Below, in pieces: positions 1,641 through 62,554 of a DNA stretch of 64,000 nt (position 1 is the stretch's first letter; each line of letters opens with the position of its first letter). The notes below the pieces were generated by a model. That model was not told the DNA's origin. It did no database searches and saw only the letters and a program-made list of their open reading frames with translations. Source of the stretch: Patescibacteria group bacterium (GTDB lineage: Bacteria; Patescibacteriota; Minisyncoccia; Phycocordibacterales; PALSA-1337); NCBI GenBank assembly GCA_018971685.1, contig JAGXAG010000005.1, forward strand, positions 1,842 through 65,841, given 5' to 3'. Both the position numbers and the translations under genes were made by a program.

Positions 1641-1783
1641 GAGAGTAGCGCGGTACTTTGAAAATTAAAAGTAAGTAGAGAATGTAAATGTGCAAGTAAA
1701 CGAAAATATTCCAAATGAGCTGGAAGCGAATATTAAGTAGGCGCATGTAAAAGTGCTTTCTATTTTGTTCCGTTCGCTTATAG

Positions 1784-3722
<1,939 letters not shown>

Positions 3723-3911
3723 TCTTTGGAGCGGAAAAGGGAAACTTATGTCGATTCGTTCCAACCATTGGGATGAAGGTGATCGCTCTTTGACCGTAAA
3801 CAAGAGCGCTTAGTCTCCGAAGATAGGGGACATACATGGGCGTTTGCAATTGAAACGCTCATGGGTGAACGGAACAAAATAGAGAGCATAGTATCCACTA
3901 TTTAGTGGAGC

Positions 3912-3942: not shown

Positions 3943-4292
3943 GTGTTTGACTTTCGATTGTATTAATGGTATCTTGTCACAAGATGAAAACTAGACTTGA
4001 GTTCGTCAAAGCACCGATGGTGGAGATAAGCCCGGTGCCAATCAGTATAAACTTCGAGCCACTTCGGAAAGGGGTCGAAAGACTAATTCCGTCGTGGCGG
4101 ACGATATTCTGGATTGCGGTCGCGGGGTTCGCCACACTGTGTGTGGCCATCTTCGCGGAGTGCTTGAAGAACGAGCATTTTCTGGAGTCAATCAAATACT
4201 GATCAGAGTAACCAATCTCAGATCTACAAGGCACCAAGAACCGCAGGGTGCCTTTGTTTTCTGTCATTATTTATCATATAGTAATGCTTACG

Positions 4293-4332
4293 GACGCGTG
4301 GCGGAATCGATACGCATGTACGCTTGATGAGC
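4293..4332 (+). repeat. Degenerate 5'-half copy of the downstream tRNA-Leu gene (pseudo-tRNA fragment)
   Basis: GACGCGTGGCGGAATCGATACGCATGTACGCTTGATGAGC aligns to positions 2-45 of the tRNA at 4367 (GGCGCGTGGCGGAACTGGTATACGCGTACGCTTCAGGAGC). No T-arm or 3' acceptor follows. Confidence 0.5.
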
Positions 4333-4366
4333 TTAATCAGAGTTCGTTATATATTCGAGAAATAAT

Positions 4367-4448
4367 GGGCGCGTGGCGGAACTGGTATACGCGTACGCTT
4401 CAGGAGCGTATGGAGCAATCCTTGGAGGTTCAAATCCTCTCGCGCCCA
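4367..4448 (+). tRNA. tRNA-Leu (anticodon CAG), type II with long variable arm
   Basis: Hand-folded: 7-bp acceptor GGGCGCG/CGCGCCC, 3-bp D-stem with GG in the loop, anticodon stem TACGC/GCGTA with loop TTCAGGA, 13-nt variable arm, T-arm GGAGG-TTCAAAT-CCTCT, discriminator A. CCA is not encoded. Confidence 0.7.
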
Positions 4449-4540
4449 CATCGGCATGGAGTAGCGGTTAACGAAGATTTTTGATAGTATCTTCTTTGTC
4501 GAAGAAGTGTCGATTTTGGTTCGGAAATATAATACGCAAT

Positions 4541-7119: not shown

Positions 7120-7521
7120 ATGTTAGCAATACGACTTCAAAGAACCGGCAGGAAGCACGAACCGACTTTTCGCGTGGTCTTGACCGATTCAAAGAACGGC
7201 CCGAAGAGCGGAAAGTATTTGAAAAACTTGGGATGGTACGATACGCGGCTCAAGAACAAAGCCGAACAATTGAAGACCGATGAAATAAAACACTGGGTAT
7301 CCAAAGGCGCGAAGCTCTCGATCACTTTGCACAATTTTCTGGTAAATCAAAAAATCATCGATGGCAAGAAGTTAAATGCTCTGCCCAAAAAGACGCCGAT
7401 CAAGAAAGAGGTTCCGGCGGAACCGGTGTCGGCACCCGCCGCACCCGTGCCCGTGCCTGCTCCTGTTGAAAAAGCCGCTCACACTTCCGCGCCTGAACAA
7501 GAAACTCCCGCAGTCAAATAA
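7120..7521 (+). CDS. rpsP: 30S ribosomal protein S16 with a Pro/Ala-rich C-terminal extension
   Basis: MLAIRLQRTGRKHEPTFRVVLTDSKNGPKSGKYLKNLGWYD. AAGGTG lies 8 nt upstream of the ATG at 7120. The C-terminal ~50 aa (PAEPVSAPAAPVPVPAPV...) are an extension. Confidence 0.85.
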   Translation: MLAIRLQRTGRKHEPTFRVVLTDSKNGPKSGKYLKNLGWYDTRLKNKAEQLKTDEIKHWVSKGAKLSITLHNFLVNQKIIDGKKLNALPKKTPIKKEVPAEPVSAPAAPVPVPAPVEKAAHTSAPEQETPAVK

Positions 7522-7533
7522 CACTGCGTTCTC

Positions 7534-7695
7534 AATAAACTTCGGCACTTCCTTTTTGTGAGCCTCCGGGACTCATGTCGTTGAATTGCAAGGTTTTGTC
7601 GCTCTCCAATCCGCGTTCGCGACAAAACCTAGCAATTCGTACTCCATTCGAACAGGTCCTCGGCTCACAAAAAGGAAGTGCCGAAGTTTATTGCG
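7534..7695. repeat. Family-A hairpin element, intergenic copy: 32-bp perfect terminal inverted repeat around a ~98-bp structured core
   Basis: Arms are CAATAAACTTCGGCACTTCCTTTTTGTGAGCC (7534-7565) and the exact reverse complement (7664-7695). The core (GGGACTCATGTCGTTGAATTGCAAGGTTTTGTCGC...GCGACAAAACCTAGCAATTCG...AACAGGTCCTC) is homologous to the cores at 32361-32457 and 60565-60661. Confidence 0.65.
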
Positions 7696-7720
7696 ACTAT
7701 TTGAGATAGTGCAGACAAGT

Positions 7721-7749
7721 TGACGAAAAACTCAATACTGATAGAATGT
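7721..7749 (+). promoter_or_regulatory. Sigma70-like promoter TTGACG-N16-TAGAAT upstream of the KH-domain gene
   Basis: Near-consensus -35 and -10 hexamers with 16-nt spacing, 47 nt upstream of the ATG at 7796. Confidence 0.45.
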
Positions 7750-7795
7750 GCGCAGTACAGCGAACTGTACGATTACAAATTTATCGGAAAATACC

Positions 7796-8143
7796 ATGAA
7801 TCAGCACGCAGACCAGCAGTTCCTAGAGTTTATTATCAAAGCGTTAGTCGACAATCCCGATCAAGTGAAAGTTGCGCGTTCGGTCGATGAGATGGGTGTA
7901 CTCCTGACTCTCGAAGTTGCCGCCGCCGATATGGGCAAAATCATAGGCCGCCAGGGCAATACAGCCAAATCAATCCGCACCCTTCTGCGCGTTGTAGGCA
8001 TGAAAAATAATTCTCGCGTCAACCTAAAGATCAATGAACCCGAAGGCGGATTGAAGTCCCAGCCGCAATCACAAGGTCCGTCCGCCGCCGAGAAGGCCAC
8101 CAAATCAGTCGACGAAGCCATGGCCGATCTCAAGATCGATTAA
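7796..8143 (+). CDS. KH-domain RNA-binding protein (KhpA/UPF0109-like) with C-terminal extension
   Basis: FLEFIIKALVDNPDQVKVARSVDEMGVLLTLEVAAADMGKIIGRQGNTAKSIRTLLRVV. The listed ORF start 7748 lies inside the promoter, so the start is taken at the ATG at 7796. Confidence 0.75.
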   Translation: MNQHADQQFLEFIIKALVDNPDQVKVARSVDEMGVLLTLEVAAADMGKIIGRQGNTAKSIRTLLRVVGMKNNSRVNLKINEPEGGLKSQPQSQGPSAAEKATKSVDEAMADLKID

Positions 8144-9186: not shown

Positions 9187-9198
9187 ATGTTTAAATAG

Positions 9199-9262
9199 TA
9201 AATTATAAACAAATTGTAATTTATAATATTTAAAATTTACTTATTATTGTTTGTTTATAATT
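9199..9262. promoter_or_regulatory. AT-rich inverted repeat AAATTATAAACAA ... TTGTTTATAATTT upstream of rpoB
   Basis: Arms at 9200-9212 and 9249-9261. The same pair of arm sequences recurs at 62508-62548 upstream of obg. Confidence 0.4.
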
Positions 9263-9284
9263 TTAAATTTACATTACAACCAAA

Positions 9285-19366: not shown

Positions 19367-20665
19367 ATGACAGCTAAAGATTACTTCAAGGGTAAAAGGA
19401 TAGCGCTTATCGGTTTGGGATCATACGGAGAGGAGGTCGAAGATGCCAAATTCATGATAAGGGCCGGCGCTATATTGTCGATATACGACTTGCGCAGTGA
19501 AGCCAGGCTTAAAAGCCATCTTGTCTTTTTGCGTTCTGTCGGTTTGGCCAATTATGTTTGCGGTTCTATTCCGGCCGAAGATCTTCCCGATATGGACCTG
19601 ATAATCTTGTCCAGAGAATATTCACGCAGTTCTTCTTTCTTGGAGAAAGCCACGGAAAAAGGCGTGATGATAGAATATCCGGAAACTTTGTTTTTCAAAT
19701 TGGCTCCGCCCATAACGGTGGTGGGCGTTATGGGCGCGTGCGGCAAGACGACCGTTATTTCTATGTTGGCACCGATGCTATCCGAATCTTGCGGCGGACT
19801 GTACATAAGTGACGGCGCATCCGGCGGCTTGCTGCTTTTCCTGAAGAAGATAAGGAATGGAGACATATTGATCATGAGAATTGACAGTGTGATCGCGGCT
19901 GAACTTAAGGGATTGAATATAAGCCCCCAAGTGGCGGTGCTTACGGGCGTGCCGCCAAAAGGCGTTTACAGCGATTCTCCGTTCGATGTGTTAGCCAACC
20001 AAACTTACAACAATTTCATTGTAGCTTCAGACGAAGTTATCGATGCCACGCGCGTTTACGGATTCAAGCCGCGGGCAAAGATGCTCAGGACGAAAACTTC
20101 CGTCATCCCGGAATCATGGCTGTTCAATGGTCGCACACATGACCGTGAAAATGCAGCGCTGGCCTTACAAACCGCCAAATTGTTCAAGGTGTCGGAAGAT
20201 ACGGCACAAAAAGTTCTCGAAGTATGGAAACCGCTCAAAGGCAGAGTTGAGCTAGTAAAAAAGGTAAAGATGGTCGAGTTTTACAACGACGCCGCCTCGG
20301 CGGTGCCGGAAGCGACCATGGCCGGTATTATTTCGTTGGCACAAAACCGTAATATAGTTTTGATTTTAGGCGGTGCGCACAGTGGTCATGATTACCGCGC
20401 GCTAAACGCGCTTATCCCGCAATATGCGCATACTGTGGTGCTATTGCCCGGCAGCGGGACCATCTTGGAGCGCAAGGAATTGGAGCGTTTGGACAATGTG
20501 GATGTTTTATCGGCACCATCAGTCGAAGAGGCCGTCAGGTTGGCGCAGGATCATGCGCGTTCCGGGGACCGAGTTTTGTTCAGTCCGGGCTTTGATGCCG
20601 CCGGGATCGATTCTTCGTGCAAGGAAAGAGGTGAAAGGTTCGTCAGGGCGGTTAGAGCGTTGTGA
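19367..20665 (+). CDS. murD: UDP-N-acetylmuramoylalanine--D-glutamate ligase-like Mur ligase
   Basis: VVGVMGACGKTTVISMLA P-loop in the Mur ligase central domain; about 430 aa; C-terminal Mur ligase domain. Confidence 0.7.
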   Translation: MTAKDYFKGKRIALIGLGSYGEEVEDAKFMIRAGAILSIYDLRSEARLKSHLVFLRSVGLANYVCGSIPAEDLPDMDLIILSREYSRSSSFLEKATEKGVMIEYPETLFFKLAPPITVVGVMGACGKTTVISMLAPMLSESCGGLYISDGASGGLLLFLKKIRNGDILIMRIDSVIAAELKGLNISPQVAVLTGVPPKGVYSDSPFDVLANQTYNNFIVASDEVIDATRVYGFKPRAKMLRTKTSVIPESWLFNGRTHDRENAALALQTAKLFKVSEDTAQKVLEVWKPLKGRVELVKKVKMVEFYNDAASAVPEATMAGIISLAQNRNIVLILGGAHSGHDYRALNALIPQYAHTVVLLPGSGTILERKELERLDNVDVLSAPSVEEAVRLAQDHARSGDRVLFSPGFDAAGIDSSCKERGERFVRAVRAL

Positions 20666-30883: not shown

Positions 30884-30971
30884 TCTCTGAAACAGTTTTT
30901 TACCCGGCGTACTATATGGAGCAGTGCGCCGGCTTTTTGTATTCGACTTTTCCGTTCCGTGGTACAATACT

Positions 30972-33074
30972 ATGCATCAATCGTTCGCGGGAACGGCAAC
31001 CGCATTTAATTCAATGGACGAGAATCGCGTAACATATTTTGCGGAGACAGACGCGCGTAACAAGCGGGTCAAATTTGGCATAAAGAGCAAGGACAGGACC
31101 AAGCATCTGTACGCCATCGGCAAAACCGGCATGGGCAAATCCACCATGTTGGAAAACATGGCCGTGCAAGACATTCAGGCCGGAGAAGGAATGTGTTTCA
31201 TCGATCCGCATGGCAAGACCGCCGACCTGCTCTTGGAATATGTGCCCAAAGAGCGCGTGAACGATGTCATATACATCGCGCCGTTCGATACCGACTTTCC
31301 GATATCGTTCAATGTGCTCGAAAGCGTCGATCCGGACAAGAGGCACTTGGTGGTGTCTGGCCTCATGAGTACATTCAAGAAAATCTGGGTCGACGCCTGG
31401 TCCGCCAGAATGGAATACATATTGACCAACACCCTTTTGGCATTGCTCGAAGCGCCGGGTTCCACGCTTCTCGGCGTGAATAGGTTGCTGTCGGACAAGG
31501 AATACAGGAGAGACATCGTGTCGAAAGTGCAGGATCCGTCGGTCAAAGCTTTCTGGACCAAGGAGTTCGCCAATTACAGCGAACGCATGGCTCAAGACGC
31601 TGTGCCCGCCATCCAGAACAAAGTCGGCCAATTCACCGCGAACCCGCTCATCAGGAACATGATCGGCCAGCCGCAGTCGTCGTTTGATTTCCGCCAGGCG
31701 ATGGATAACAGGAAAATAGTCATTATCAACCTTTCCAAAGGCCGGGTCGGCGACGAGAACATGAAGCTTTTGGGCGGCATGCTGGTGACGAAGATTTATT
31801 TGGCGGCAATGTCCAGGGCCGATACGCCGGATCGTATAGCCAGGACTCTGCCGAACTTCTATTTGTTCGTCGATGAATTCCAGAACTTCGCCAACGCCTC
31901 GTTTGCCGATATTCTTTCGGAGGCCAGGAAGTACAAGCTGAATTTGACGATCGCGCATCAATATATCGAGCAGATGGACGAGGATGTGCGCGCGGCGGTC
32001 TTCGGCAATGTGGGCACGATGATAGCTTTTCGGGTCGGCGCGACCGATGCGGAAGCGCTGGAGAAGGAATTTGCGCCGACTTTCACGATCGAGGATTTGG
32101 TGAATCTTGGATTCACCCAAATTTACCTAAAGTTAATGATCGACGGCCTGACCTCGTCGCCTTTTTCGGCGGTGACTTTGCCGCCGATCGCGCACCCGGG
32201 TTCTTCATTTGTAAAAGAAATTATCGAGGCGTCTAGAACACAATTCGCGCGGCCGCGAGTAATGGTTGAAGCTGAGATAGTGAAATTCCACGAACCGACG
32301 CAGAAATCGGCGCGGTCTGCTATTCCCGCGCCCGCAGGCGAAGCGCTTGCCGGTTCGAGTCTGCGGAACTCGCGTCGTGAAGTTGCCAGGTTTTCGGGCT
32401 CGACAGCGCGACCCGAAAACCTGGCAACTTCTACGCCGCTCAAACAGAGTCCTCGACTCGAACCGGCAAGCGCTTCGCCTGCGGGCGCGGCTGACGCAAG
32501 TACTTCAGTCGCTGCCAATATTTCCACTGATTCCAAAACTTCATCAGCGCCGTCGGCAAAGACGGATACGGTTTCCGAACCCTCTTCGGAGACGGGTTGG
32601 AGACAAAATCCGCATACTACCGACTCCCCGCCGAGAAAAGGCGGCGACGGCGGGCGTCCTGTTGTTCCGCTGTCACCGACCGTGGGTGAGGGAAACCGTG
32701 TTCGTAGAGCCGAAAAGCGCGAAGAGCTTGGACAGCATAACCAACAACATATTTCACTATCGTCGCTCAGTCGCAATCAACCCAAGCGCGACCTGAAGAC
32801 GCAATCGAAAGAGAATGTCAGTCAATTGAGAAACGCCCTGCAAGCCGCGCTCGGCAAGACCGAACGCGCCGCGCCCACTTTCTCGCCGACCGATGCCGCC
32901 GCGTCCGTTCCAGCCACAGCGCCTGCCGCGACAACCCAAAATACAATTGCCTCACAACCCGTACGGCAAAACCAAGCACTTCAAAAAACACCTGAAATTC
33001 CAAAAGTTCCGAAAACCGATAAAGTTCCTGAAGTCCCCGAAGAAGTCTTGAAAAAGGTCTTGAAAGTTGATTGA
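30972..33074 (+). CDS. Soluble VirD4/TraD-like type IV coupling-protein-family ATPase with ~250-aa low-complexity C-terminal tail
   Basis: Walker A AIGKTGMGKST; Walker B FYLFVDEFQNF; LTIAHQYIEQMDEDVRAAVFGNVGTMIAFRVGATDAEALEKEF matches the T4CP C-terminal block. No N-terminal TM. An extended -10 TGGTACAAT lies just upstream. The start is ambiguous (30972 or 31014). Confidence 0.65.
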   Translation: MHQSFAGTATAFNSMDENRVTYFAETDARNKRVKFGIKSKDRTKHLYAIGKTGMGKSTMLENMAVQDIQAGEGMCFIDPHGKTADLLLEYVPKERVNDVIYIAPFDTDFPISFNVLESVDPDKRHLVVSGLMSTFKKIWVDAWSARMEYILTNTLLALLEAPGSTLLGVNRLLSDKEYRRDIVSKVQDPSVKAFWTKEFANYSERMAQDAVPAIQNKVGQFTANPLIRNMIGQPQSSFDFRQAMDNRKIVIINLSKGRVGDENMKLLGGMLVTKIYLAAMSRADTPDRIARTLPNFYLFVDEFQNFANASFADILSEARKYKLNLTIAHQYIEQMDEDVRAAVFGNVGTMIAFRVGATDAEALEKEFAPTFTIEDLVNLGFTQIYLKLMIDGLTSSPFSAVTLPPIAHPGSSFVKEIIEASRTQFARPRVMVEAEIVKFHEPTQKSARSAIPAPAGEALAGSSLRNSRREVARFSGSTARPENLATSTPLKQSPRLEPASASPAGAADASTSVAANISTDSKTSSAPSAKTDTVSEPSSETGWRQNPHTTDSPPRKGGDGGRPVVPLSPTVGEGNRVRRAEKREELGQHNQQHISLSSLSRNQPKRDLKTQSKENVSQLRNALQAALGKTERAAPTFSPTDAAASVPATAPAATTQNTIASQPVRQNQALQKTPEIPKVPKTDKVPEVPEEVLKKVLKVD
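32329..32489. repeat. Family-A hairpin element, in-frame copy inside the T4CP-like gene (32-bp perfect terminal inverted repeat)
   Basis: GCGCCCGCAGGCGAAGCGCTTGCCGGTTCGAG (32329-32360) is the exact reverse complement of 32458-32489. Inner stem GTTGCCAGGTTTTCGGG/CCCGAAAACCTGGCAAC around loop CTCGACAGCGCGA. Encodes ...PAGEALAGSSLRNSRREVARFSGSTARPENLATSTPLKQSPRLEPASASPAG... Confidence 0.7.
32633..32700. repeat. Family-B GC-rich repeat, in-frame copy in the T4CP-like gene
   Basis: ACTCCCCGCCGAGAAAAGGCGGCGACGGCGGGCGTCCTGTTGTTCCGC...CGTGGGTGAGGGAAACC is ~80 percent identical to 58881-58958 in secA. Confidence 0.55.
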
Positions 33075-34285
33075 ATGCGATTATGCGCCGCATCCTCATA
33101 TTTTCGCTGGTGTACTATCCGAACATGATCGGCGGGGCCGAGGTGGCGATAAAAGAAATCACCGATCGGATTCCGGACAGTGAAATCGAATTCGACATGG
33201 TGGCATTGCGATTGGACCGTAAACTCCCTAAGTTCGAAAAGATCGGCAATGTAAATATTCACAGAATCGGCTGGACAGGCAAACAAAAGACATTGTCAGA
33301 TTCTTTGCCGCCATATCTGCATTTGAATAAATACGCGTATCTCGCCCTGGGACTATTCAAGGCAATTTCCTTGAATCGAAAAAGGAAATATGACGCCATC
33401 TGGTCGCTAATGGCGACATATAATTCATTCGCGGCCGTGCTTTTCAAATTGGCGCATCCGAAAATACCGTTCATCTTCACTCTACAAGACGGCGATCCGA
33501 TCCCGTATTTGAAAAGGCGCGCCCGGCCGCTATATCCAATGTTCAAGATGATGTTTACCCGCGCGGACGCCATTCAGGCCATTTCGAAATATCTTGCAGA
33601 TTGGGCGCTGGATATGGGCGCGAAATGTCCCGTTACAATCGTGCCAAACGGGGTAGATTATCGATTTTTCTCAAAACAGGTCTCCGGCGGGCGTTTAGGG
33701 GCTTTAAAAGCGCAACTAGGCAAGCGGGAAGGCGATATTTTCCTCATTACGGTCTCTAGATTGGTAGCCAAAAACGCCGTTGGCGACATCATTCAAGCTT
33801 TGAATTATTTGCCGATTAATATCAAGTTGCTCATCGCGGGAACAGGCTATGAAGAGGAAAGGTTGAAGAAGATGGTTCGCACCGGTCCGACCGGTGTACA
33901 CCGGTCGGACCGGTGCGAACCCAGCGTCATATTCCTAGGACATGTGCCGCATGCAGATCTGCCGATGTATCTCCAAGCCTCGAACATATTCATCCGCCCG
34001 TCGCTCTCCGAAGGTTTCGGCAATTCATTTGTCGAAGCGATGGCCGCCGGCATTCCCGTCATCGCCACGCCGGTCGGCGGTATTGTTGACTTTTTGCGCG
34101 ACGGCGAAACCGGACTTTTCTGTGAAGTTAGAAACCCAAGATCGATCGCGGAAAAAGTCGAACGGTTGATCGACAACGAGGGGTTGCAGAATTCTTTGGT
34201 GATAAATGCGAGGAGAATGGTTGAAGACAAATATGACTGGAATAAAATTGCCAATGAAATGAAAATGATATTTGCCGGAGTCTGA
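33071..34285 (+). CDS. Glycosyltransferase family 4 (GT-B, Glycos_transf_1)
   Basis: SLSEGFGNSFVEAMAAGIPVIATPVGGIVDFL (E-x7-E motif). Contains the in-frame 48-bp palindrome at 33875-33922 encoding VRTGPTGVHRSDRCEP. Confidence 0.85.
   Translation: MNAIMRRILIFSLVYYPNMIGGAEVAIKEITDRIPDSEIEFDMVALRLDRKLPKFEKIGNVNIHRIGWTGKQKTLSDSLPPYLHLNKYAYLALGLFKAISLNRKRKYDAIWSLMATYNSFAAVLFKLAHPKIPFIFTLQDGDPIPYLKRRARPLYPMFKMMFTRADAIQAISKYLADWALDMGAKCPVTIVPNGVDYRFFSKQVSGGRLGALKAQLGKREGDIFLITVSRLVAKNAVGDIIQALNYLPINIKLLIAGTGYEEERLKKMVRTGPTGVHRSDRCEPSVIFLGHVPHADLPMYLQASNIFIRPSLSEGFGNSFVEAMAAGIPVIATPVGGIVDFLRDGETGLFCEVRNPRSIAEKVERLIDNEGLQNSLVINARRMVEDKYDWNKIANEMKMIFAGV
33875..33922. repeat. Family-D motif as a perfect 48-bp palindrome GGTTCGCACCGGTCCGACCGGTGTA|TACACCGGTCGGACCGGTGCGAACC, in-frame in the GT4 gene
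   Basis: Exact reverse-complement symmetry. Contains the CACCGGTCCGACCGGTG motif, which is also tandemly repeated at the obg 3' end. Confidence 0.7.
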
Positions 34286-53876: not shown

Positions 53877-56132
53877 ATGACCATCAAAAAAACCACTCGC
53901 TTTGTAACGATCGCCGCTCTCTTCCTCGTCCCCATTTTCGCTCTGATCGTAGCCAACTCGCTCTTTTTCCCGTTTATTACCGGCAAGGCATTCTATTTCC
54001 GCCTCATGGTTGAGATCGCTTTCGCCGCCTGGGTGATTCTGGCTTTTCTTGATGCCAGATACCGGCCGAAGCTGAATGCTCTCACGGTCGGCGTGACACT
54101 TTTTACTGTTGTCGCCCTCATTGCCGACCTTCTGGGCGTGAATCCGATCCGAAGCATGTGGTCCAATTTCGAACGCATGGAGGGCTGGATAACGATCGTT
54201 CATCTGTGGGCGTTCTTCATCGCGGCGGCGGCGGTGTTCGGCGCGGAAGGGGAGGCGAAAAAGTGGTGGCATCGGTTCTTCAATTTCGAATTGGCGGTGG
54301 CTTTTGTCGTCGGGCTTTACGGCTTGGGACAATTGCTCGGCTGGTTCGCGATCCATCAGGGTTCGACCAGGATCGACGCGTCGCTGGGCAATGCGGCGTA
54401 CATGGCGGTTTACATGCTCATGAACGCCGGTTTGGCGGCGTACTTGTTCCTGGCGGAAAAGGCGAAGCGCGCGGCGGCAAAATCGCCGGGCATTTCATTC
54501 ATGGGCTGGATATATATTGTTCTTACCGTACTCTTTTCTTTCCTCCTCTTTGAAACTTCCACTCGCGGCACGATTCTCGGCTTTACCGGCGGACTCATGC
54601 TGGCGCTTTTCCTCTATGCGCTTTTTGCCAAGAATGGATCCAAGCGGTCGCGCATGATCTCAGGCGGCGTCGTGGCGCTCATTGTGATCGCGGGCATCGG
54701 CATTTACGCTTTGCGCAACCAGCCGATCGTCAAGAACAACGAGGTCTTGAACCGCATGACGAGCATTTCCTTGAGCAATACCGAGTCGACGGCGCGCCTT
54801 TATATCTGGCAAATGGCTCTGACCGGCTGGACCGAAAGGCCGGTTTTGGGTTGGGGCCAGGAGAATTTCAACTACATCTTCAACGCCAATTACAATCCGA
54901 AAATGTGGTCGCAGGAGCAGTGGTTCGATCGCGCGCACAGCGTATACTTCGACTGGCTGGTGGCTGGAGGGTTGGTGGGACTCATGGCTTATCTCGCGCT
55001 GTATGTATTGTTGTTGCGCGGAATTTGGAAATCGGGATTTACCATGTCCGAAAAGTGCGCCTTGACCGGACTGGTGGCCGGCTACGCGGTGCACAACATA
55101 TTTGTGTTCGATAACTTGGCGAGCTATGTCTTGTTCTTTACTCTGCTCGGATTCGTTGCGTCGATAAAATCCTCCGCTGCTTTGCGGCACCCCCTTTTGC
55201 AAAGGGGGAATTCATCGCAAGAATCTTTCACTAACGGCGCTTCAACCATAGGCGGAACGAAGGAAGTCAGGCCCGAGATAGTCGAATATGTGGTGGCGCC
55301 GATATCGATCGTCGCCTTGGTTATCGTGATTTTCTTCTTTGAACTGCGCCCATACCAAGCCAATACCGCTCTTATCACCGCTTTGCAATCATGCTCCGGA
55401 CCGACGCCGGACGCTACATTGTTCGACAAGGCGCTTGCCGTGAACACTTATGTTGCCAACCAGGAAATCCGCGAGCAGTCGCTCTCTTGCGCCGGTTCGG
55501 TCATCGGAAGCCAGAGTGCGCCCGGACCGACGAAGCAGGCTTTCTTCCAGTTGGCCGTGAATAATATCCAGGCTCAGATTGCCGCCACGCCGAAAGATGC
55601 GAGGATGTATGTGCTCGGCGGCGGATTCTTGCTGGGTGCGGGACAAAACGCGCAAGCCCTGCAGCTGCTCGTCGACGCGCACGCGCTGTCGCCGGCCAAA
55701 CAGTCGATTGATTTTCAATTGGCGCAAGCGTATTTGAATGCCGGCCAGATACCGGAATCAGTGGCGGTATTGCGGCAAGCCTATGAAGGCGATCCGTCGT
55801 ATGGCGAAGCGCGCTCGGCCTATGCCACCGGGTTGGTTCTGACCGGGCAGGAAAGTTTGGCGCACCAATTGTTCGGCGACGATCCGGCGGTATTCCAGAC
55901 CGAGCAGATGGCGGGCGTATATGCCAACCTGAAGCAATACCAAAAAGCGATCTCGATCTATGTTGCGCTCATCAAAAACAGCCCGACGGATGTCAACTTG
56001 CTTTCCAGGCTTGCGCAAATACAATACGCGGCGGGCATGAAGACGCAAGCGATTGCGACCTTGCGCAGTATTGAGAAGGATCATCCGGAATACAAAGACC
56101 AGATCGAGGCGGCGATCAAGCAGGTGCAGTAG
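53877..56132 (+). CDS. O-antigen ligase/Wzy_C-domain polytopic membrane protein fused to C-terminal TPR repeats (candidate glycan ligase/O-oligosaccharyltransferase)
   Basis: About 12 TM helices with a large loop (Wzy_C-like); the C-terminal ~250 aa carry TPR-like repeats (AQAYLNAGQIPESVAVLRQAYEGDPSYGEA...). The start is taken at the ATG at 53877; the listed 53718 start overlaps Wzm. Confidence 0.65.
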   Translation: MTIKKTTRFVTIAALFLVPIFALIVANSLFFPFITGKAFYFRLMVEIAFAAWVILAFLDARYRPKLNALTVGVTLFTVVALIADLLGVNPIRSMWSNFERMEGWITIVHLWAFFIAAAAVFGAEGEAKKWWHRFFNFELAVAFVVGLYGLGQLLGWFAIHQGSTRIDASLGNAAYMAVYMLMNAGLAAYLFLAEKAKRAAAKSPGISFMGWIYIVLTVLFSFLLFETSTRGTILGFTGGLMLALFLYALFAKNGSKRSRMISGGVVALIVIAGIGIYALRNQPIVKNNEVLNRMTSISLSNTESTARLYIWQMALTGWTERPVLGWGQENFNYIFNANYNPKMWSQEQWFDRAHSVYFDWLVAGGLVGLMAYLALYVLLLRGIWKSGFTMSEKCALTGLVAGYAVHNIFVFDNLASYVLFFTLLGFVASIKSSAALRHPLLQRGNSSQESFTNGASTIGGTKEVRPEIVEYVVAPISIVALVIVIFFFELRPYQANTALITALQSCSGPTPDATLFDKALAVNTYVANQEIREQSLSCAGSVIGSQSAPGPTKQAFFQLAVNNIQAQIAATPKDARMYVLGGGFLLGAGQNAQALQLLVDAHALSPAKQSIDFQLAQAYLNAGQIPESVAVLRQAYEGDPSYGEARSAYATGLVLTGQESLAHQLFGDDPAVFQTEQMAGVYANLKQYQKAISIYVALIKNSPTDVNLLSRLAQIQYAAGMKTQAIATLRSIEKDHPEYKDQIEAAIKQVQ
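55184..55213. repeat. Family-C small hairpin element (CCCCCTTT-TGC-AAAGGGGG) in-frame in the Wzy_C-TPR gene
   Basis: GCGGCACCCCCTTTTGCAAAGGGGGAATTC is the near reverse complement of 60714-60742 in secA. Confidence 0.5.
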
Positions 56133-56157
56133 TATCGGAATACCTCGCGCTCAAAGC

Positions 56158-56196
56158 AACAATCAACAGAGGGGCACCCTCTGTTGATTGTTTTGT
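56158..56196 (+). terminator. Intrinsic terminator (15-bp perfect stem AACAATCAACAGAGG/CCTCTGTTGATTGTT, loop GGCAC, then TTG/T-rich)
   Basis: Directly after the Wzy_C-TPR gene stop. Confidence 0.6.
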
Positions 56197-56251
56197 CAAG
56201 GTTGTCCGGTAATGTGCACACACATATGGCGGTTTCTCCTAGAATGGAGGA

Positions 56252-58160: not shown

Positions 58161-58237
58161 CGAGGTTAGTCCTCGAGGACTAACCTCGAAGCGAAAGTAT
58201 GTTATAGTAGCGATTACCGAGATCGAATCTCGGCACT

Positions 58238-61200
58238 ATGTCATTTTTCGGCAAATTATTGGGCAATACGCAACATACGCAGAGCGTCAAACACTTCGAG
58301 CCTTTAGTAGCGAAAATCAACGCGCTTGAGGAATCTTTTAAGGCGCTTTCGGACCAAGAATTAAAGGCGAAGACGGTTGAATTTCGCAGGCGTTTGGGGG
58401 TAGCGCCATCGGTTTCGCCGCTTCCTGCAGTTGCAGAGGGTGCTCCTATGCAAGCCTCTGTAGAGGCCGTCATCCCCGGTGACATCCTGTCCGAAGCCTT
58501 TGCCGCCGTGCGCGAGGCGGCCAGGAGAACGCTTGGCCAGAGGCATTTTGATGTGCAGCTTATAGGCGGCATGGTCCTCGATTCCGGAGCGATCGCGGAG
58601 ATGAGGACCGGCGAAGGCAAAACGCTCGTAGCGACCTTGTCGGCGTATTTGAATGCTCTTTCCGGCAAAGGCGTCCACATTGTCACTGTCAACGATTATC
58701 TTTCCCGCCGAGATGCTGTGTGGATGGGGCAGATTTACGATTTTCTAGGTTTGACTGTAGGAGTAATAAACCATGAAGCCAGCTTTCTGTACGATTCGAG
58801 CATCGCGCCCCAAGGTGCAGCGGGAACGGATTCTGGACCCTCTTCGGAGGCGGGGGGTGTACCAACTTCACCTACCTCGTACTCCCCGCCGAGAAAAGAC
58901 GGCGCCGGCGGGCGTTCCGTTGTTCCGCCGGCGACGATCGTGGGTGAAGAACCCGTTCCCGCGAAGCCGACAGGACGCGATACCGATGTTCGTGTCGACC
59001 ATAAACTCGACAAGGAGCGTGACGATGTTGGCGCGTTCAAGGTCGTCCACGAATTTTTGCGGCCGTGTACCCGCCGTGAAGCCTATGCCGCCGATATCAC
59101 CTACGGCACCAACAACGAATTTGGCTTCGACTATCTGCGCGACAACCTCGAATATTCTCCGGCCGCTTTGCGCCAACGGCCATTCAACTACGCCATAGTC
59201 GACGAAATCGACTCCATCTTGATCGACGAGGCGCGTACGCCCTTGATCATCTCCGCGCCATCGCGCGACGCCGAGAGCACTTACAAACAGTTCGCCGCGC
59301 TTGTTGTTTCATTCAAGGAAAATGAAGACTATGAAAAAGACGAGAAGAGAAAAGCCATATCGCTTTTGCCGGCCGGCATAGAGAAAGCCGAGAAAGCGCT
59401 CGGCATCGACAATATTTACACCAATGCCGGCATAAAATATGTGCACCATTTGGAGACGGCGGTCAGAGCCAAAGCGCTGTTTAAGCGCGACAAAGAATAT
59501 GTCGTCAAGGACAACCAGATAGTGATCGTCGATGAATTCACCGGCCGATTGCAGCCCGGACGAAGATGGTCGGAAGGATTGCACCAGGCCATCGAAGCCA
59601 AAGAAGGCGTGGTGATACAGCAGGAGTCCAGGACTTACGCCACGATCACATTCCAAAATTTCTTCCGCATGTATCCGAAGCTTTCCGGCATGACCGGCAC
59701 GGCGGCAACTTCCAGCGAAGAATTTTATAAAGTCTACGGCTTGGATGTGTATATGGTGCCGCCGAATGTGCCGGTGGTGCGCGCCGATAAGAACGACCAA
59801 ATATTCAGGACCGAGCCGGGCAAATTCAAGGCCATTGCCAGGAAAGTGAAAGAACTGCACGACAAGGGCCAGCCGGTTCTGATCGGCACGGTGTCGATCG
59901 AGCGCAACGAGCTCTTGTCACAATTCTTGAAAGCCGAAGGCATACCGCATACGATGTTGAATGCCAAGCCGGAATATGCCGAGCGCGAAGGCGAAACGGT
60001 GGCGCAGGCGGGCAAGAAAGGCGCGGTCACGATCGCGACCAACATGGCGGGCCGCGGCGTGGACATCAAGCTCGGCGGCAATCCGAATACCAAGGAAGCG
60101 TATGAAGAAGTAAAACGCCTGGGCGGGCTTTTCGTCTTGGGCACGGAAAGGCACGAAGCGCGGCGCATCGACAATCAGCTTCGCGGGCGATCGGGCAGGC
60201 AGGGCGATCCGGGCGAGACGCAATTCTTCGTTTCGTTGGAAGACACGCTGATGCGAGTGTTCGCGTCGGATACCTTGAAGTCGATGATGGGGCGCCTGGG
60301 CATGGCGGAAGACGAGCCGATCGAGCATCGGCTGATTTCTAAGGCGTTGGAGAGCGCGCAGGAGAAAATAGAGGGTTTCAATTTCGATTCGCGCAAGCAT
60401 GTGCTGGAATTTGACGATGTGATCAATACGCAACGCTCGAGTGTGTATTCGAGGCGCAGGAGATTGCTCTTGGGCAATGTTGACGATGTGGAAAAAGAGC
60501 TGTTTGAGATTTTGGGCTTGAATGACACCGCCGCCTCGCCGGACGGAACATTCTCGGCCGCGAGTCTGCGGGACTCGCGTCGTGAAATTGCAAGGTTTTC
60601 CGGCTCGACAGCGCGACCGGAAAACCTTGCAATTTCAACGCCGCTCAAACAGAGTCCTCGCCTCGCGGCCGAGAATGTTCCGTCCGGCGAGGCGGCGGCT
60701 GACGCGATTGATGGAAATTCTCCCTTTGGAAAAGGGGGTGCTCCGGAGCGAAGCGGAGGGGCGGGGGATTTTGAGTCGGTAATTCAAAAGAAAATCTCCG
60801 AATTCGGACGCGATAACTTCTTGAATGCGGCGCGAATAATATTACTGCAGACGATTGACATGTACTGGGTGGAGCATCTGGAGGTGATGGATTACACCAG
60901 GGGCAGCGTGAATTTGCGGGCGTACGGGCAGAGGGATCCATTGGTGGAATACAAAAAGGAGGGTTTGCGGCTGTTTCGGGAAATGCAAAACGCCGTGCGC
61001 GAGCAGGTTGTGCGCATTTTGCCGAACATCGTGCCGGTCATTCAGGGCCAGGCGGCGCAAAACATTTCATCGAACGCCGCGCCGAAGAATTCGGTTCTAA
61101 CTCCCGAAATGCGCGAAGTGCACGAAAACGCGCGAATCATCGGATCGCAAGACGGCTCCGGCAAAGCGGTTCAGTCTGCCAAAAAGGAGCCGCAGTTTGG

Positions 61201-61267
61201 CCGGAATGATCCCTGCTGGTGCGGCAGTGGGAAAAAGTACAAGAAGTGCCATGGGAAGAATGTCTAA
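58238..61267 (+). CDS. secA: Preprotein translocase ATPase SecA with C-terminal zinc-binding tail and two repeat-element-derived inserts
   Basis: LHAMRTGEGKTLVATL (Walker A) and VTIATNMAGRGVDIKLGG (motif VI); the C-terminus is CWCGSGKKYKKCHG. Foreign inserts at 58881-58958 and 60528-60698. Confidence 0.97.
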   Translation: MSFFGKLLGNTQHTQSVKHFEPLVAKINALEESFKALSDQELKAKTVEFRRRLGVAPSVSPLPAVAEGAPMQASVEAVIPGDILSEAFAAVREAARRTLGQRHFDVQLIGGMVLDSGAIAEMRTGEGKTLVATLSAYLNALSGKGVHIVTVNDYLSRRDAVWMGQIYDFLGLTVGVINHEASFLYDSSIAPQGAAGTDSGPSSEAGGVPTSPTSYSPPRKDGAGGRSVVPPATIVGEEPVPAKPTGRDTDVRVDHKLDKERDDVGAFKVVHEFLRPCTRREAYAADITYGTNNEFGFDYLRDNLEYSPAALRQRPFNYAIVDEIDSILIDEARTPLIISAPSRDAESTYKQFAALVVSFKENEDYEKDEKRKAISLLPAGIEKAEKALGIDNIYTNAGIKYVHHLETAVRAKALFKRDKEYVVKDNQIVIVDEFTGRLQPGRRWSEGLHQAIEAKEGVVIQQESRTYATITFQNFFRMYPKLSGMTGTAATSSEEFYKVYGLDVYMVPPNVPVVRADKNDQIFRTEPGKFKAIARKVKELHDKGQPVLIGTVSIERNELLSQFLKAEGIPHTMLNAKPEYAEREGETVAQAGKKGAVTIATNMAGRGVDIKLGGNPNTKEAYEEVKRLGGLFVLGTERHEARRIDNQLRGRSGRQGDPGETQFFVSLEDTLMRVFASDTLKSMMGRLGMAEDEPIEHRLISKALESAQEKIEGFNFDSRKHVLEFDDVINTQRSSVYSRRRRLLLGNVDDVEKELFEILGLNDTAASPDGTFSAASLRDSRREIARFSGSTARPENLAISTPLKQSPRLAAENVPSGEAAADAIDGNSPFGKGGAPERSGGAGDFESVIQKKISEFGRDNFLNAARIILLQTIDMYWVEHLEVMDYTRGSVNLRAYGQRDPLVEYKKEGLRLFREMQNAVREQVVRILPNIVPVIQGQAAQNISSNAAPKNSVLTPEMREVHENARIIGSQDGSGKAVQSAKKEPQFGRNDPCWCGSGKKYKKCHGKNV
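58881..58958. repeat. Family-B GC-rich repeat, in-frame copy in secA
   Basis: ACTCCCCGCCGAGAAAAGACGGCGCCGGCGGGCGTTCCGTTGTTCCGCC...CGTGGGTGAAGAACCCGTTCC; flanked by GCGGGAACGG (58819-58828) / CCGTTCCCGC (58953-58962). Confidence 0.55.
60528..60698. repeat. Family-A hairpin element, in-frame copy inside secA (about 37-bp perfect terminal inverted repeat)
   Basis: CCGCCGCCTCGCCGGACGGAACATTCTCGGCCGCGAG (60528-60564) is the reverse complement of 60662-60698. Inner stem ATTGCAAGGTTTTCCGG/CCGGAAAACCTTGCAAT with the same loop CTCGACAGCGCGA as the 32329 copy. Encodes ...SAASLRDSRREIARFSGSTARPENLAISTPLKQSPRLAAENVPSGEAAA... Confidence 0.7.
60714..60742. repeat. Family-C small hairpin element, in-frame copy in secA (inverted relative to 55184-55213)
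   Basis: GAAATTCTCCCTTTGGAAAAGGGGGTGCT versus reverse complement of 55184-55213 GAATTCCCCCTTTGCAAAAGGGGGTGCC. Confidence 0.5.
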
Positions 61268-62507: not shown

Positions 62508-62548
62508 AAATTATAAACAATTAGTAAATCGTAAATTGTTTATAATTT
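62508..62548. promoter_or_regulatory. Perfect 15-bp inverted repeat AAATTATAAACAATT-N11-AATTGTTTATAATTT embedding TATAAT 8 nt upstream of the obg ATG
   Basis: Same arm sequences as the rpoB-upstream repeat at 9199-9262. TATAAT at 62541-62546. Confidence 0.45.
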
Positions 62549-62554
62549 ACTCAA

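Follow-up and report, generated by a model that had tools for sequence, protein, structure and literature searches.

The spacer between rpsP and a KhpA-type KH-domain gene in this Patescibacteria genome holds a long hairpin, and the locus raises the question of whether this hairpin evolved to serve the rpsP/KH/trmD ribosome-maturation cluster or arrived there as a piece of mobile DNA. It was analyzed here within the window, i.e., the whole stretch of 64,000 nucleotides under study, and in comparison with related genomes and metagenome contigs.

The hairpin between rpsP and the KH-domain gene

The hairpin, hereafter c1, spanned window positions 7530–7696 and formed a 167-nt rod with a nested stem. 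Its inverted repeat was perfect over 32 bp (7533–7564 / 7662–7693) and could be extended to arms of 35 nt (7530–7564 / 7662–7696) with one mismatch (97% complementarity); the nested inverted repeat was 20 nt long (95%). The perfect repeat began 11 nt past the rpsP stop codon and finished 26 nt ahead of the −35 box of the KH gene. Within the window, the arm sequence occurred at these two sites only, and it had no match in 100 shuffles. These coordinates bore out the initial annotation, which had placed a hairpin with 32-bp perfect arms and a nested core between the rpsP stop codon and the promoter TTGACG-16-TAGAAT. The parts of the element and its neighbors were as follows:

7120–7521, + strand: rpsP (ribosomal protein S16), upstream gene; stop codon at 7519–7521
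7530–7564, + strand: left arm of c1, perfect from 7533; copy-specific; T-run at 7553–7557 near the core
7565–7582, + strand: 5' junction motif of the core, TCCGGGACTCATGTCGTT, matching the family consensus TCTGCGGRACTC
7583–7638, + strand: inner stem-loop with 20-bp arms (7583–7602 / 7619–7638) and a 16-nt apical loop
7639–7661, + strand: 3' junction motif of the core, GTACTCCATTCGAACAGGTCCTC (consensus CTCAAACAG(A)GTCCTCG), forming an asymmetric internal loop
7662–7696, + strand: right arm of c1, reverse complement of the left arm, perfect to 7693
7720–7747, + strand: promoter-like TTGACG-16-TAGAAT of the KH gene with TG extension, outside the element and kept in relatives
7796–8143, + strand: KhpA-type KH-domain gene, downstream, followed by TrmD

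The RNA fold of c1 was a single rod of −94.7 kcal/mol (z = −14.3). The RNA of the opposite strand folded equally well (−95.3 kcal/mol), and the single-stranded DNA reached −58.9 (z = −12.8). No T-run followed the element (the sequence after 7696 is CTATTTGAGATAG) and a terminator scan gave no site there, in agreement with the initial annotation, which had pointed out the missing T-run. An intrinsic terminator was therefore rejected for this stem without a U-run.

The comparison of rpsP–KH spacers that the initial annotation had proposed turned out unfavorably for a role in the cluster. In the closest syntenic relative (L026), which has the identical gene order PK-S16-KhpA-TrmD and shares 88% identity in KhpA and 80% in S16, the element was missing: the S16–KhpA spacer is 79 nt long and has no hairpin, and the −35 TTGACG shares bases with the S16 stop codon. 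The window spacer is longer by about 198 bases. The KH promoter and a leader hairpin were kept in three relatives, and the element was not. By these comparisons, c1 appears to be a lineage-specific insertion rather than a conserved part of the operon, and it can be dated only as younger than a deep split, that marked by the 88% KhpA identity.

The leader AGTACAGCGAACTGTACGATTACAA (window 7754–7778; also in L025, L026, and L027) was itself conserved and starts at the predicted KH transcription start. With a 6-bp stem and a CGAA loop, it may be a 5'-terminal stabilizer or a regulatory hairpin of the khpA-trmD transcript. In one relative (L027, 327–1358), a reverse-transcriptase gene (RVT_1) stands in place of rpsP upstream of the conserved KH promoter. 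Elsewhere in the window, AT-rich inverted repeats on AAATTATAAACAA lie at 9192–9271 and 62508–62549, upstream of rpoB and of obg. The 16S rRNA gene (1780–3702) measures 1923 nt against a 1533-nt model, with about 390 nt of insertions, and is flanked by a 22-nt inverted repeat (1754–1775 / 3867–3888) that resembles a processing stem. A 44-nt stretch at 4292–4335 shares 75% identity with the 5' portion of tRNA-Leu(CAG) (4367–4449), and neither tRNA tool called a tRNA there.

Family members inside and outside the window

The window holds two further copies, both in frame within protein-coding genes:

32326–32490, + strand: c2, 165 nt with 36-bp perfect arms, in frame in a 716-aa VirD4/TraG-like ORF (30924–33074)
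60528–60698, + strand: c3, 171 nt with 37-bp perfect arms, in frame in SecA (58238–61267)

Core conservation with these intragenic copies was present on formal alignment, at 68–71% identity of c1 to c2 and c3 and 92% between c2 and c3, so that the initial annotation was right to place c1 in the same repeat family (family A). A covariance model of the core scored 119 bits for c1, 107 for c2, and 110 for c3, and found no further family A copy in the window. Both coding copies are read in the same frame, which yields the peptide SLR[ND]SRRE[VI]ARFSGSTARPENLA[TI]STPLKQSPRL; the SecA peptide at c3 is SLRDSRREIARFSGSTARPENLAISTPLK. In SecA, the c3 site falls within a loop of the wing/scaffold region whose length is hypervariable. 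The shortest SecA orthologues were without the entire c3 insert, two others carried different, decayed palindromes at this loop, and the c3 region stayed unaligned in the PDB alignment of SecA. In the alignment of orthologues, which confirmed the hypervariable loop at c3, a similarity to GTF-type sequences was at most suggestive.

Outside the window, at least 11 copies of identical architecture were found in related groundwater MAGs and metagenome contigs, giving a small sample of about 14 copies from 4–5 genomes. Copy lengths ranged from 149 to 182 nt and none had an ORF of its own. The intergenic copies (c1, L001, L005, L028, and others) upheld the earlier remark, made from c1, that the family is not restricted to coding DNA. 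Pattern scans of genome and metagenome collections gave genuine copies only in the MAGs CAYHFU01 and CAYIQG01 and in Hainich groundwater metagenomes, where they belong to the same populations; matches at L004 and L014 in these scans were rejected as chance, as were L023 and L024, which had been picked up by a looser 17-base pattern and had no surrounding element. One typical, one very divergent, and one degenerate copy were present at L028, from a relative of the window organism. This locus was reached through a 54-aa ORF call in an exhaustive peptide profile search, in which the only other coding match was the c2 fragment of the window itself; a word-indexed peptide search gave no match. No description of such elements in Patescibacteria was found in the literature.

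Occupied and empty sites could also be paired at other loci. DUF5671 and PK overlap in the window, and at L028 a copy lies between them. The MurB–SecA spacer is element-free in the window, and in CAYHFU01 it carries a copy whose arm starts inside the MurB stop codon. CAYHFU01 and the window have the Wzy/TPR-MurB-SecA synteny in common, with 51–65% protein identity, and spread across classes was dropped because it is MAGs titled Saccharibacteria that share this synteny and identity with the window. All hosts are treated here as one broad lineage, which judging by SecA matches would be related to Paceibacteria-like genomes.

Contigs of GCA_028870795.1 match the window and their ends adjoin element copies; SecA is annotated as partial in this assembly because the contig ends in c3. 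Public short-read assemblies were seen to break at or within about 20 nt of the family A copies L006, L007, L008, L015, L016, L018, L019, and L020. DnaA-box-like 9-mers (TGTGGATAA, TGTGGATAG / CTATCCACA) lie 5–25 nt from the copies L002, L003/L010, and L009 on different contigs.

Other in-frame repeats occur in the same genes. Family B (32563–32689 and 58821–58947; 77% identity) is in frame in the two genes that also hold c2 and c3, encodes ..SPPRK[DG]G.GG..VVP..., and again combines a conserved core with complementary arms of 9–15 nt that differ between copies. It is also present in the SecA of a relative (L022, about 1170–1310), in the same loop. Additionally, the 26-nt GCACCCCCTTTTGCAAAGGGGGAATT occurs as inverted copies at 55187–55212 in the Wzy/TPR gene and at 60716–60741 in SecA, 18 nt past c3, and is probably a third small in-frame palindromic repeat.

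Arms and core

The consensus structure of eight complete copies comprised 69 pairs, which were paired in 96.6% of cases, compared with 70.6% in shuffles (0 of 500 reached the observed value) and 36–44% in slid controls. Its outer stem (37 pairs) was 97.6% paired, with changes on both sides in 36 of the 37 pairs; the 288 cells of this stem included 282 Watson-Crick pairs, one G·U, and five mismatches. The middle helix was short and imperfect in a conserved fashion, with an invariant G·U/G·T pair in the junction that hints at one functional strand. The inner helix covaried between subfamilies, and in the divergent L028 copy it was wholly different with pairing retained, conservation being limited to the junction motifs (5' TCTGCGGAACTCGC, 3' GCTCAAACAGTCCTCG). 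The apical part of the inner stem-loop was genome- or subfamily-specific: it was identical within CAYHFU01 and freely different between genomes.

The unusual trait of the family is a near-identical center between long, perfectly matched arms that differ from copy to copy. Perfect arms spanned 27–38 bp across all complete copies. Arms were about 35–47% identical across copies and cores 77–97%; for the six copies of CAYHFU01 the values were 47% for the arms and 97% for core plus apex, and the cores of L001 and L003 were 100% identical over about 100 nt. Arms of about 47% identity next to cores of 97–100% indicate that arms and core had separate histories. Purifying selection on the core cannot explain this contrast, since the apex varies between genomes and is uniform within CAYHFU01. 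Similarity decayed outward from the core into the proximal arms.

Arms copied from elsewhere were rejected as an explanation, since BLAST of 14 arms against all sequence in the analysis matched every arm to its own partner and to nothing else. The distal arm tip CCGCGCCCGC and a CTGAC flank were common to c2 and to L007b, which lies upstream of a metG-like gene in another genome. The arms of L003 and L006 were about 60% alike along their length, and the distal arm of L003 recurred in the degenerate L028 element (1108–1247). Judging from these likenesses, the arms are probably not simply host flank. Uncompensated single changes, seen in the population variants L010/L016 relative to L003 and also in L005, imply that arm perfection is restored after mutation and not built in. 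On the right side, CGACTA follows c1, L003, and L015, and CTGAC follows the right arm of c2, c3, and L007b (right flanks in the window: 7694–7699, 32491–32495, and 60699–60703); these motifs might either mark where the element truly ends or reflect a preference for certain targets.

The window was also rich in other palindromes. Short-loop perfect palindromes numbered 8 compared with about 1 in shuffles, i.e., they were enriched about 8-fold. The one at 1269–1305, with 18-bp arms, lies in an ORF6N-domain gene, where it encodes the conserved motif SLRCQFGTSKIG and is length-neutral; by analogy with known cases, it would be a signature of template-switch correction. A perfect 48-bp zero-spacer palindrome (33874–33921; 16 codons) occupies a loop of a GT4 glycosyltransferase, and one with 11-bp arms (19707–19736) is part of a Mur-ligase-like gene. 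A further perfect palindrome, of 28 bp and with zero spacer (58161–58188), starts right behind the MurB stop codon. Its center holds AGTCCTCG, the 3'-junction 8-mer of c2 and c3; the palindrome might be a footprint or a landing site, or the likeness might be coincidental. At L008 (1280–1394), a hairpin with 36-bp perfect arms around an unrelated 43-nt center was found just past an intrinsic terminator that follows the Wzy/TPR gene. Its arm and window 56145–56207 have TCGCG...GTCAAGGTTGT in common, a score reached by 0 of 2000 shuffles in what was a post hoc comparison.

Several histories could leave a common core between copy-specific arms. The copies might be old, with their cores homogenized within each genome by gene conversion (concerted evolution) while their arms drift neutrally and are mutually corrected, which we consider possible but doubtful. 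Since the arms are non-homologous between copies, they would have to drift at the neutral rate with correction only against each other. An apex that is identical within CAYHFU01 and different between genomes is the classic signature of concerted evolution, and the fall in similarity from core into proximal arms, the uncompensated changes in L010/L016 and L005, and the loose dating of c1 are in line with it. However, unhomogenized subfamilies coexist in the window (c1 vs. c2/c3) and in CAYIQG01 (L005 vs. L009), c1 is most similar to L009, a copy in a different genome, and frequent conversion tracts of about 100 bp would be needed without flanking homology. Somewhat unlikely is a mobile core that by itself homes into the center of pre-existing perfect palindromes, be they native post-stop hairpins or older palindromic elements. 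The empty rpsP–KH site of L026 is without any palindrome, solo palindromes have arms of 11–24 bp compared with 27–38 bp in the elements, and none clearly matches an element arm. Such homing would nevertheless account for the arm/core decoupling, for perfect arms of about 36 bp around unrelated or truncated centers (L008:1280–1394 and L028:1108–1247), for random orientation, and for the missing target-site duplication. Core-less perfect palindromes are moreover enriched in the window, some directly post-stop; the MurB–SecA spacer holds a 28-bp palindrome in the window and a full copy in the MAG, and the insertion of IS1397/ISKpn1 into REP loops offers a precedent.

Alternatively, the arms could stem from fold-back or template-switch copying of host sequence next to the element, during insertion or later, which would amount to an inverted duplication or inverted-repeat expansion with one native arm. 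This is unlikely, as c2 and L007b, at unrelated loci in different genomes, have an arm tip and flank in common, the L003 and L006 arms are alike lengthwise, the L003 distal arm recurs at L028, and the narrow range of arm lengths is unexpected for random expansion. What speaks for such copying is that the arms are locus-unique and strictly Watson-Crick perfect, that template switching is known to homogenize and expand inverted-repeat arms (PMC13100816, PMC8604942), and that the ORF6N coding palindrome suggests an active process in this genome. The c3 left-arm peptide GTFSAAS also resembles GTFG-type sequences in the same SecA loop of several orthologues, and strings of the L008 arm recur in the window at the orthologous 3' region of Wzy. 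Arms of 27–38 nt that are copy-specific on a constant scaffold might also suggest functional guides, with the dsRNA hairpin diced to small RNAs or acting like a spacer against invaders; this is very improbable, since the arms match only their own partners in all sequence in the analysis, 22-mers from the c1 and c3 arms had 0 matches in 2.9 million viral contigs, and copies sit inside essential genes in both orientations. The junction signature likewise had 0 matches in viral contigs, and a phage origin was rejected together with spacer-like arms. The probability of an assembly or amplification artifact, e.g., a chimeric fold-back, is negligible: palindromes do coincide with contig ends in public assemblies, but the same sequences recur in independent ones (the window and the GCA_028870795.1 contigs; MAGs and Hainich metagenome contigs), and copies are internal to long contigs, where the SecA and VirD4-like reading frames stay open.

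Transcripts, mobility, and known systems

Family A showed no orientation bias relative to transcription or GC skew, and relative to the upstream gene three intergenic copies had the same and three the opposite orientation. Six of eight intergenic copies lay at most 17 nt from the upstream stop codon, a placement that could go beyond mere tolerance and point to a function like that of a terminator. A known RNA family was rejected: Rfam 15 at gathering thresholds matched only the 16S rRNA and two tRNAs in the whole window, and the permissive mode returned for c1 and c3 only hairpin-like miRNA models, with 15–25 bits compared with thresholds of 59–79. The family likewise lacked the marks of a structured functional RNA in general: covariation was massive, but the outer stem had a single G·U in 288 cells, orientation was mixed, and the element was absent at the L026 locus. 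An outer stem nearly free of G·U, equal folding of both strands, random orientation, and in-frame copies together point to a DNA palindrome in which one arm is copied from the other.

The initial annotation had suggested that c1 could act as a transcriptional insulator or terminator or as an RNA-processing site within the rpsP/KH/trmD cluster. As an evolved cis-acting RNA of this cluster, c1 would be either a terminator or insulator without a T-run or an RNase III site that separates the rpsP and KH/trmD transcripts. Its very stable fold and its placement exactly between stop codon and promoter are what one might cite for such a role, together with the position of most intergenic copies just past stop codons, the native short palindromes of the genome, which are also post-stop and in several cases without T-runs, and the conserved junction with its invariant G·U pair. 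Correia elements, hairpin repeats that are bound or cleaved by RNase III, provide a precedent (PMC2649163). An evolved regulatory role in the cluster was nevertheless left unsupported and is distinctly unlikely: the hairpin is missing in L026, in which stop codon and −35 box overlap, copies are oriented at random to transcription, two copies are in frame inside SecA and the VirD4-like gene, the outer stem has hardly any G·U pairs, Rfam gave no match, and no T-run lies behind the element.

We therefore read window 7530–7696 as, probably, a non-autonomous, hairpin-forming, RPE- or MITE-like mobile DNA element of Patescibacteria, with transcript effects as by-products. The analysis showed the structure of the hairpin and its family, a relative with an empty site, copies that are read in frame, independence of orientation, and a decoupling of arms from core; mobility, presumably in trans, is suggested by comparisons between fairly distant genomes. 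The element would have been inserted between the rpsP stop codon and an already existing KH promoter, presumably one of the few spots in a compact genome that tolerate about 170 bp. It would consist of a core of about 100 nt with an asymmetric junction, an inner stem-loop, and paired outer arms of 27–38 bp, and the junction (5' TCTGCGGRACTC, 3' CTCAAACAG-GTCCTCG) would be the site at which an enzyme encoded elsewhere recognizes the element in trans. Neither the roughly 50 ORFs of the window nor 20 copy-flanking ORFs of MAG contigs included a transposase, recombinase, HUH enzyme, or reverse transcriptase, and Pfam gave no RAYT (Y1 HUH transposase) among about 70 ORFs, a search that covered 64 kb of this genome. 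Direct repeats indicating a target-site duplication were not found at the arm boundaries of 10 complete copies.

Complementarity of the arms in such a mobile element may be kept by intramolecular templating, arm onto arm, through template switching in replication or hairpin-templated repair. The perfect-palindrome pattern of the window is the one ascribed to template switching and repeat conversion (PMC6649704, PMC13100816, PMC8604942). Decoupling would then arise either by exchange or homogenization of cores between copies or by renewal of the arms. If c1 is transcribed with rpsP, the duplex would act as a barrier to 3' exonucleases and as a textbook substrate of RNase III, in both cases as a side effect only; a 3'-end barrier or RNase III site is plausible because the stem is a 32-bp perfect duplex. 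A more far-reaching suggestion, which we put forward tentatively and with considerable doubt, is that family A and similarly built sister families are previously undescribed mobile hairpin DNA in which the core and the arms of about 35 bp are inherited separately. In that case, the core would move or be exchanged between palindromes, or the arms would be rewritten at each transposition and then self-templated, and the element could colonize gene ends and loops of essential proteins (e.g., SecA) throughout Patescibacteria.

For annotation, c1 should accordingly be described as a mobile-element insertion, and no conserved regulatory role in the ribosome-maturation cluster should be assigned to it. 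Selfish DNA is poorly documented in the genomes of Patescibacteria, which are tiny and densely packed with genes. As a family that enters SecA and a secretion ATPase in frame, lies at gene ends, and interrupts short-read assemblies, family A affects the assembly of MAGs, the annotation of proteins (unexplained inserts in conserved proteins), and the reading of 3' ends. The decoupling of arms and core makes it a clean natural case for the origin and upkeep of long perfect bacterial palindromes, and if the core is recognized by a dedicated enzyme, this would be a new structure-specific DNA transaction. As a regulator of the rpsP cluster the family is ordinary, and as mobile DNA it is moderately surprising.

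Among known systems, IS1397 and ISKpn1 are mobile sequences that target the apex of a pre-existing palindromic unit, so that the palindrome then resembles arms. They are full insertion sequences with transposase genes, whereas family A would insert only a core of about 100 nt that carries no gene. Palindromes in coding regions of Nematomorpha mitochondria resemble those of the window in being long perfect inverted repeats within protein genes, and their perfection is all-or-none, which suggests that one arm actively converts its partner (PMC6649704; PMC13100816; PMC8604942). In contrast to family A, however, they form no dispersed family with a shared core, and they overwrite native conserved sequence without adding an insert. 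REPINs are, like family A, mobile hairpins of about 100 nt whose stem pairing is kept by compensatory changes, and are mobilized in trans by a single-copy RAYT located elsewhere (PMC3116915). They have conserved outer ends, a variable inner spacer, and an exclusively extragenic distribution, whereas family A has a conserved center, variable arms, and coding copies; the conserved inverted ends around a variable spacer that mark REP/REPIN sequences were thus not seen here.

Classical MITEs are likewise short, gene-less, dispersed multi-copy repeats, as is family A (149–182 nt; three copies in the window and at least 11 elsewhere). They have terminal inverted repeats conserved across the family and direct target-site duplications, whereas the termini of family A were copy-specific, no duplication was found in the 10 complete copies, and no parent IS was found. 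CREE/nemis elements of Neisseria are comparable as short, non-autonomous intergenic hairpin repeats that can be co-transcribed; RNase III binds or cleaves them, and they can change how neighboring genes are expressed (PMC2649163). RPEs are gene-less palindromic repeats of about 100–170 bp. They occur between genes and also as in-frame inserts in unrelated protein genes, some of them essential, and the conserved peptide that they encode there sits at surface or loop sites that tolerate it (PMC10969869). The same combination of in-frame and intergenic palindromic inserts with a conserved peptide was found in c2, c3, and the intergenic copies. The likeness noted here is one of behavior; homology in sequence is not expected because the host phylum differs (Rickettsia vs. 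Patescibacteria). RPE copies lose their repeat identity with time (PMC6649704), whereas the arms of family A stay perfect and differ between copies, only the center being conserved. In its behavior, family A is closest to RPEs and to hairpin MITEs such as the Correia elements.
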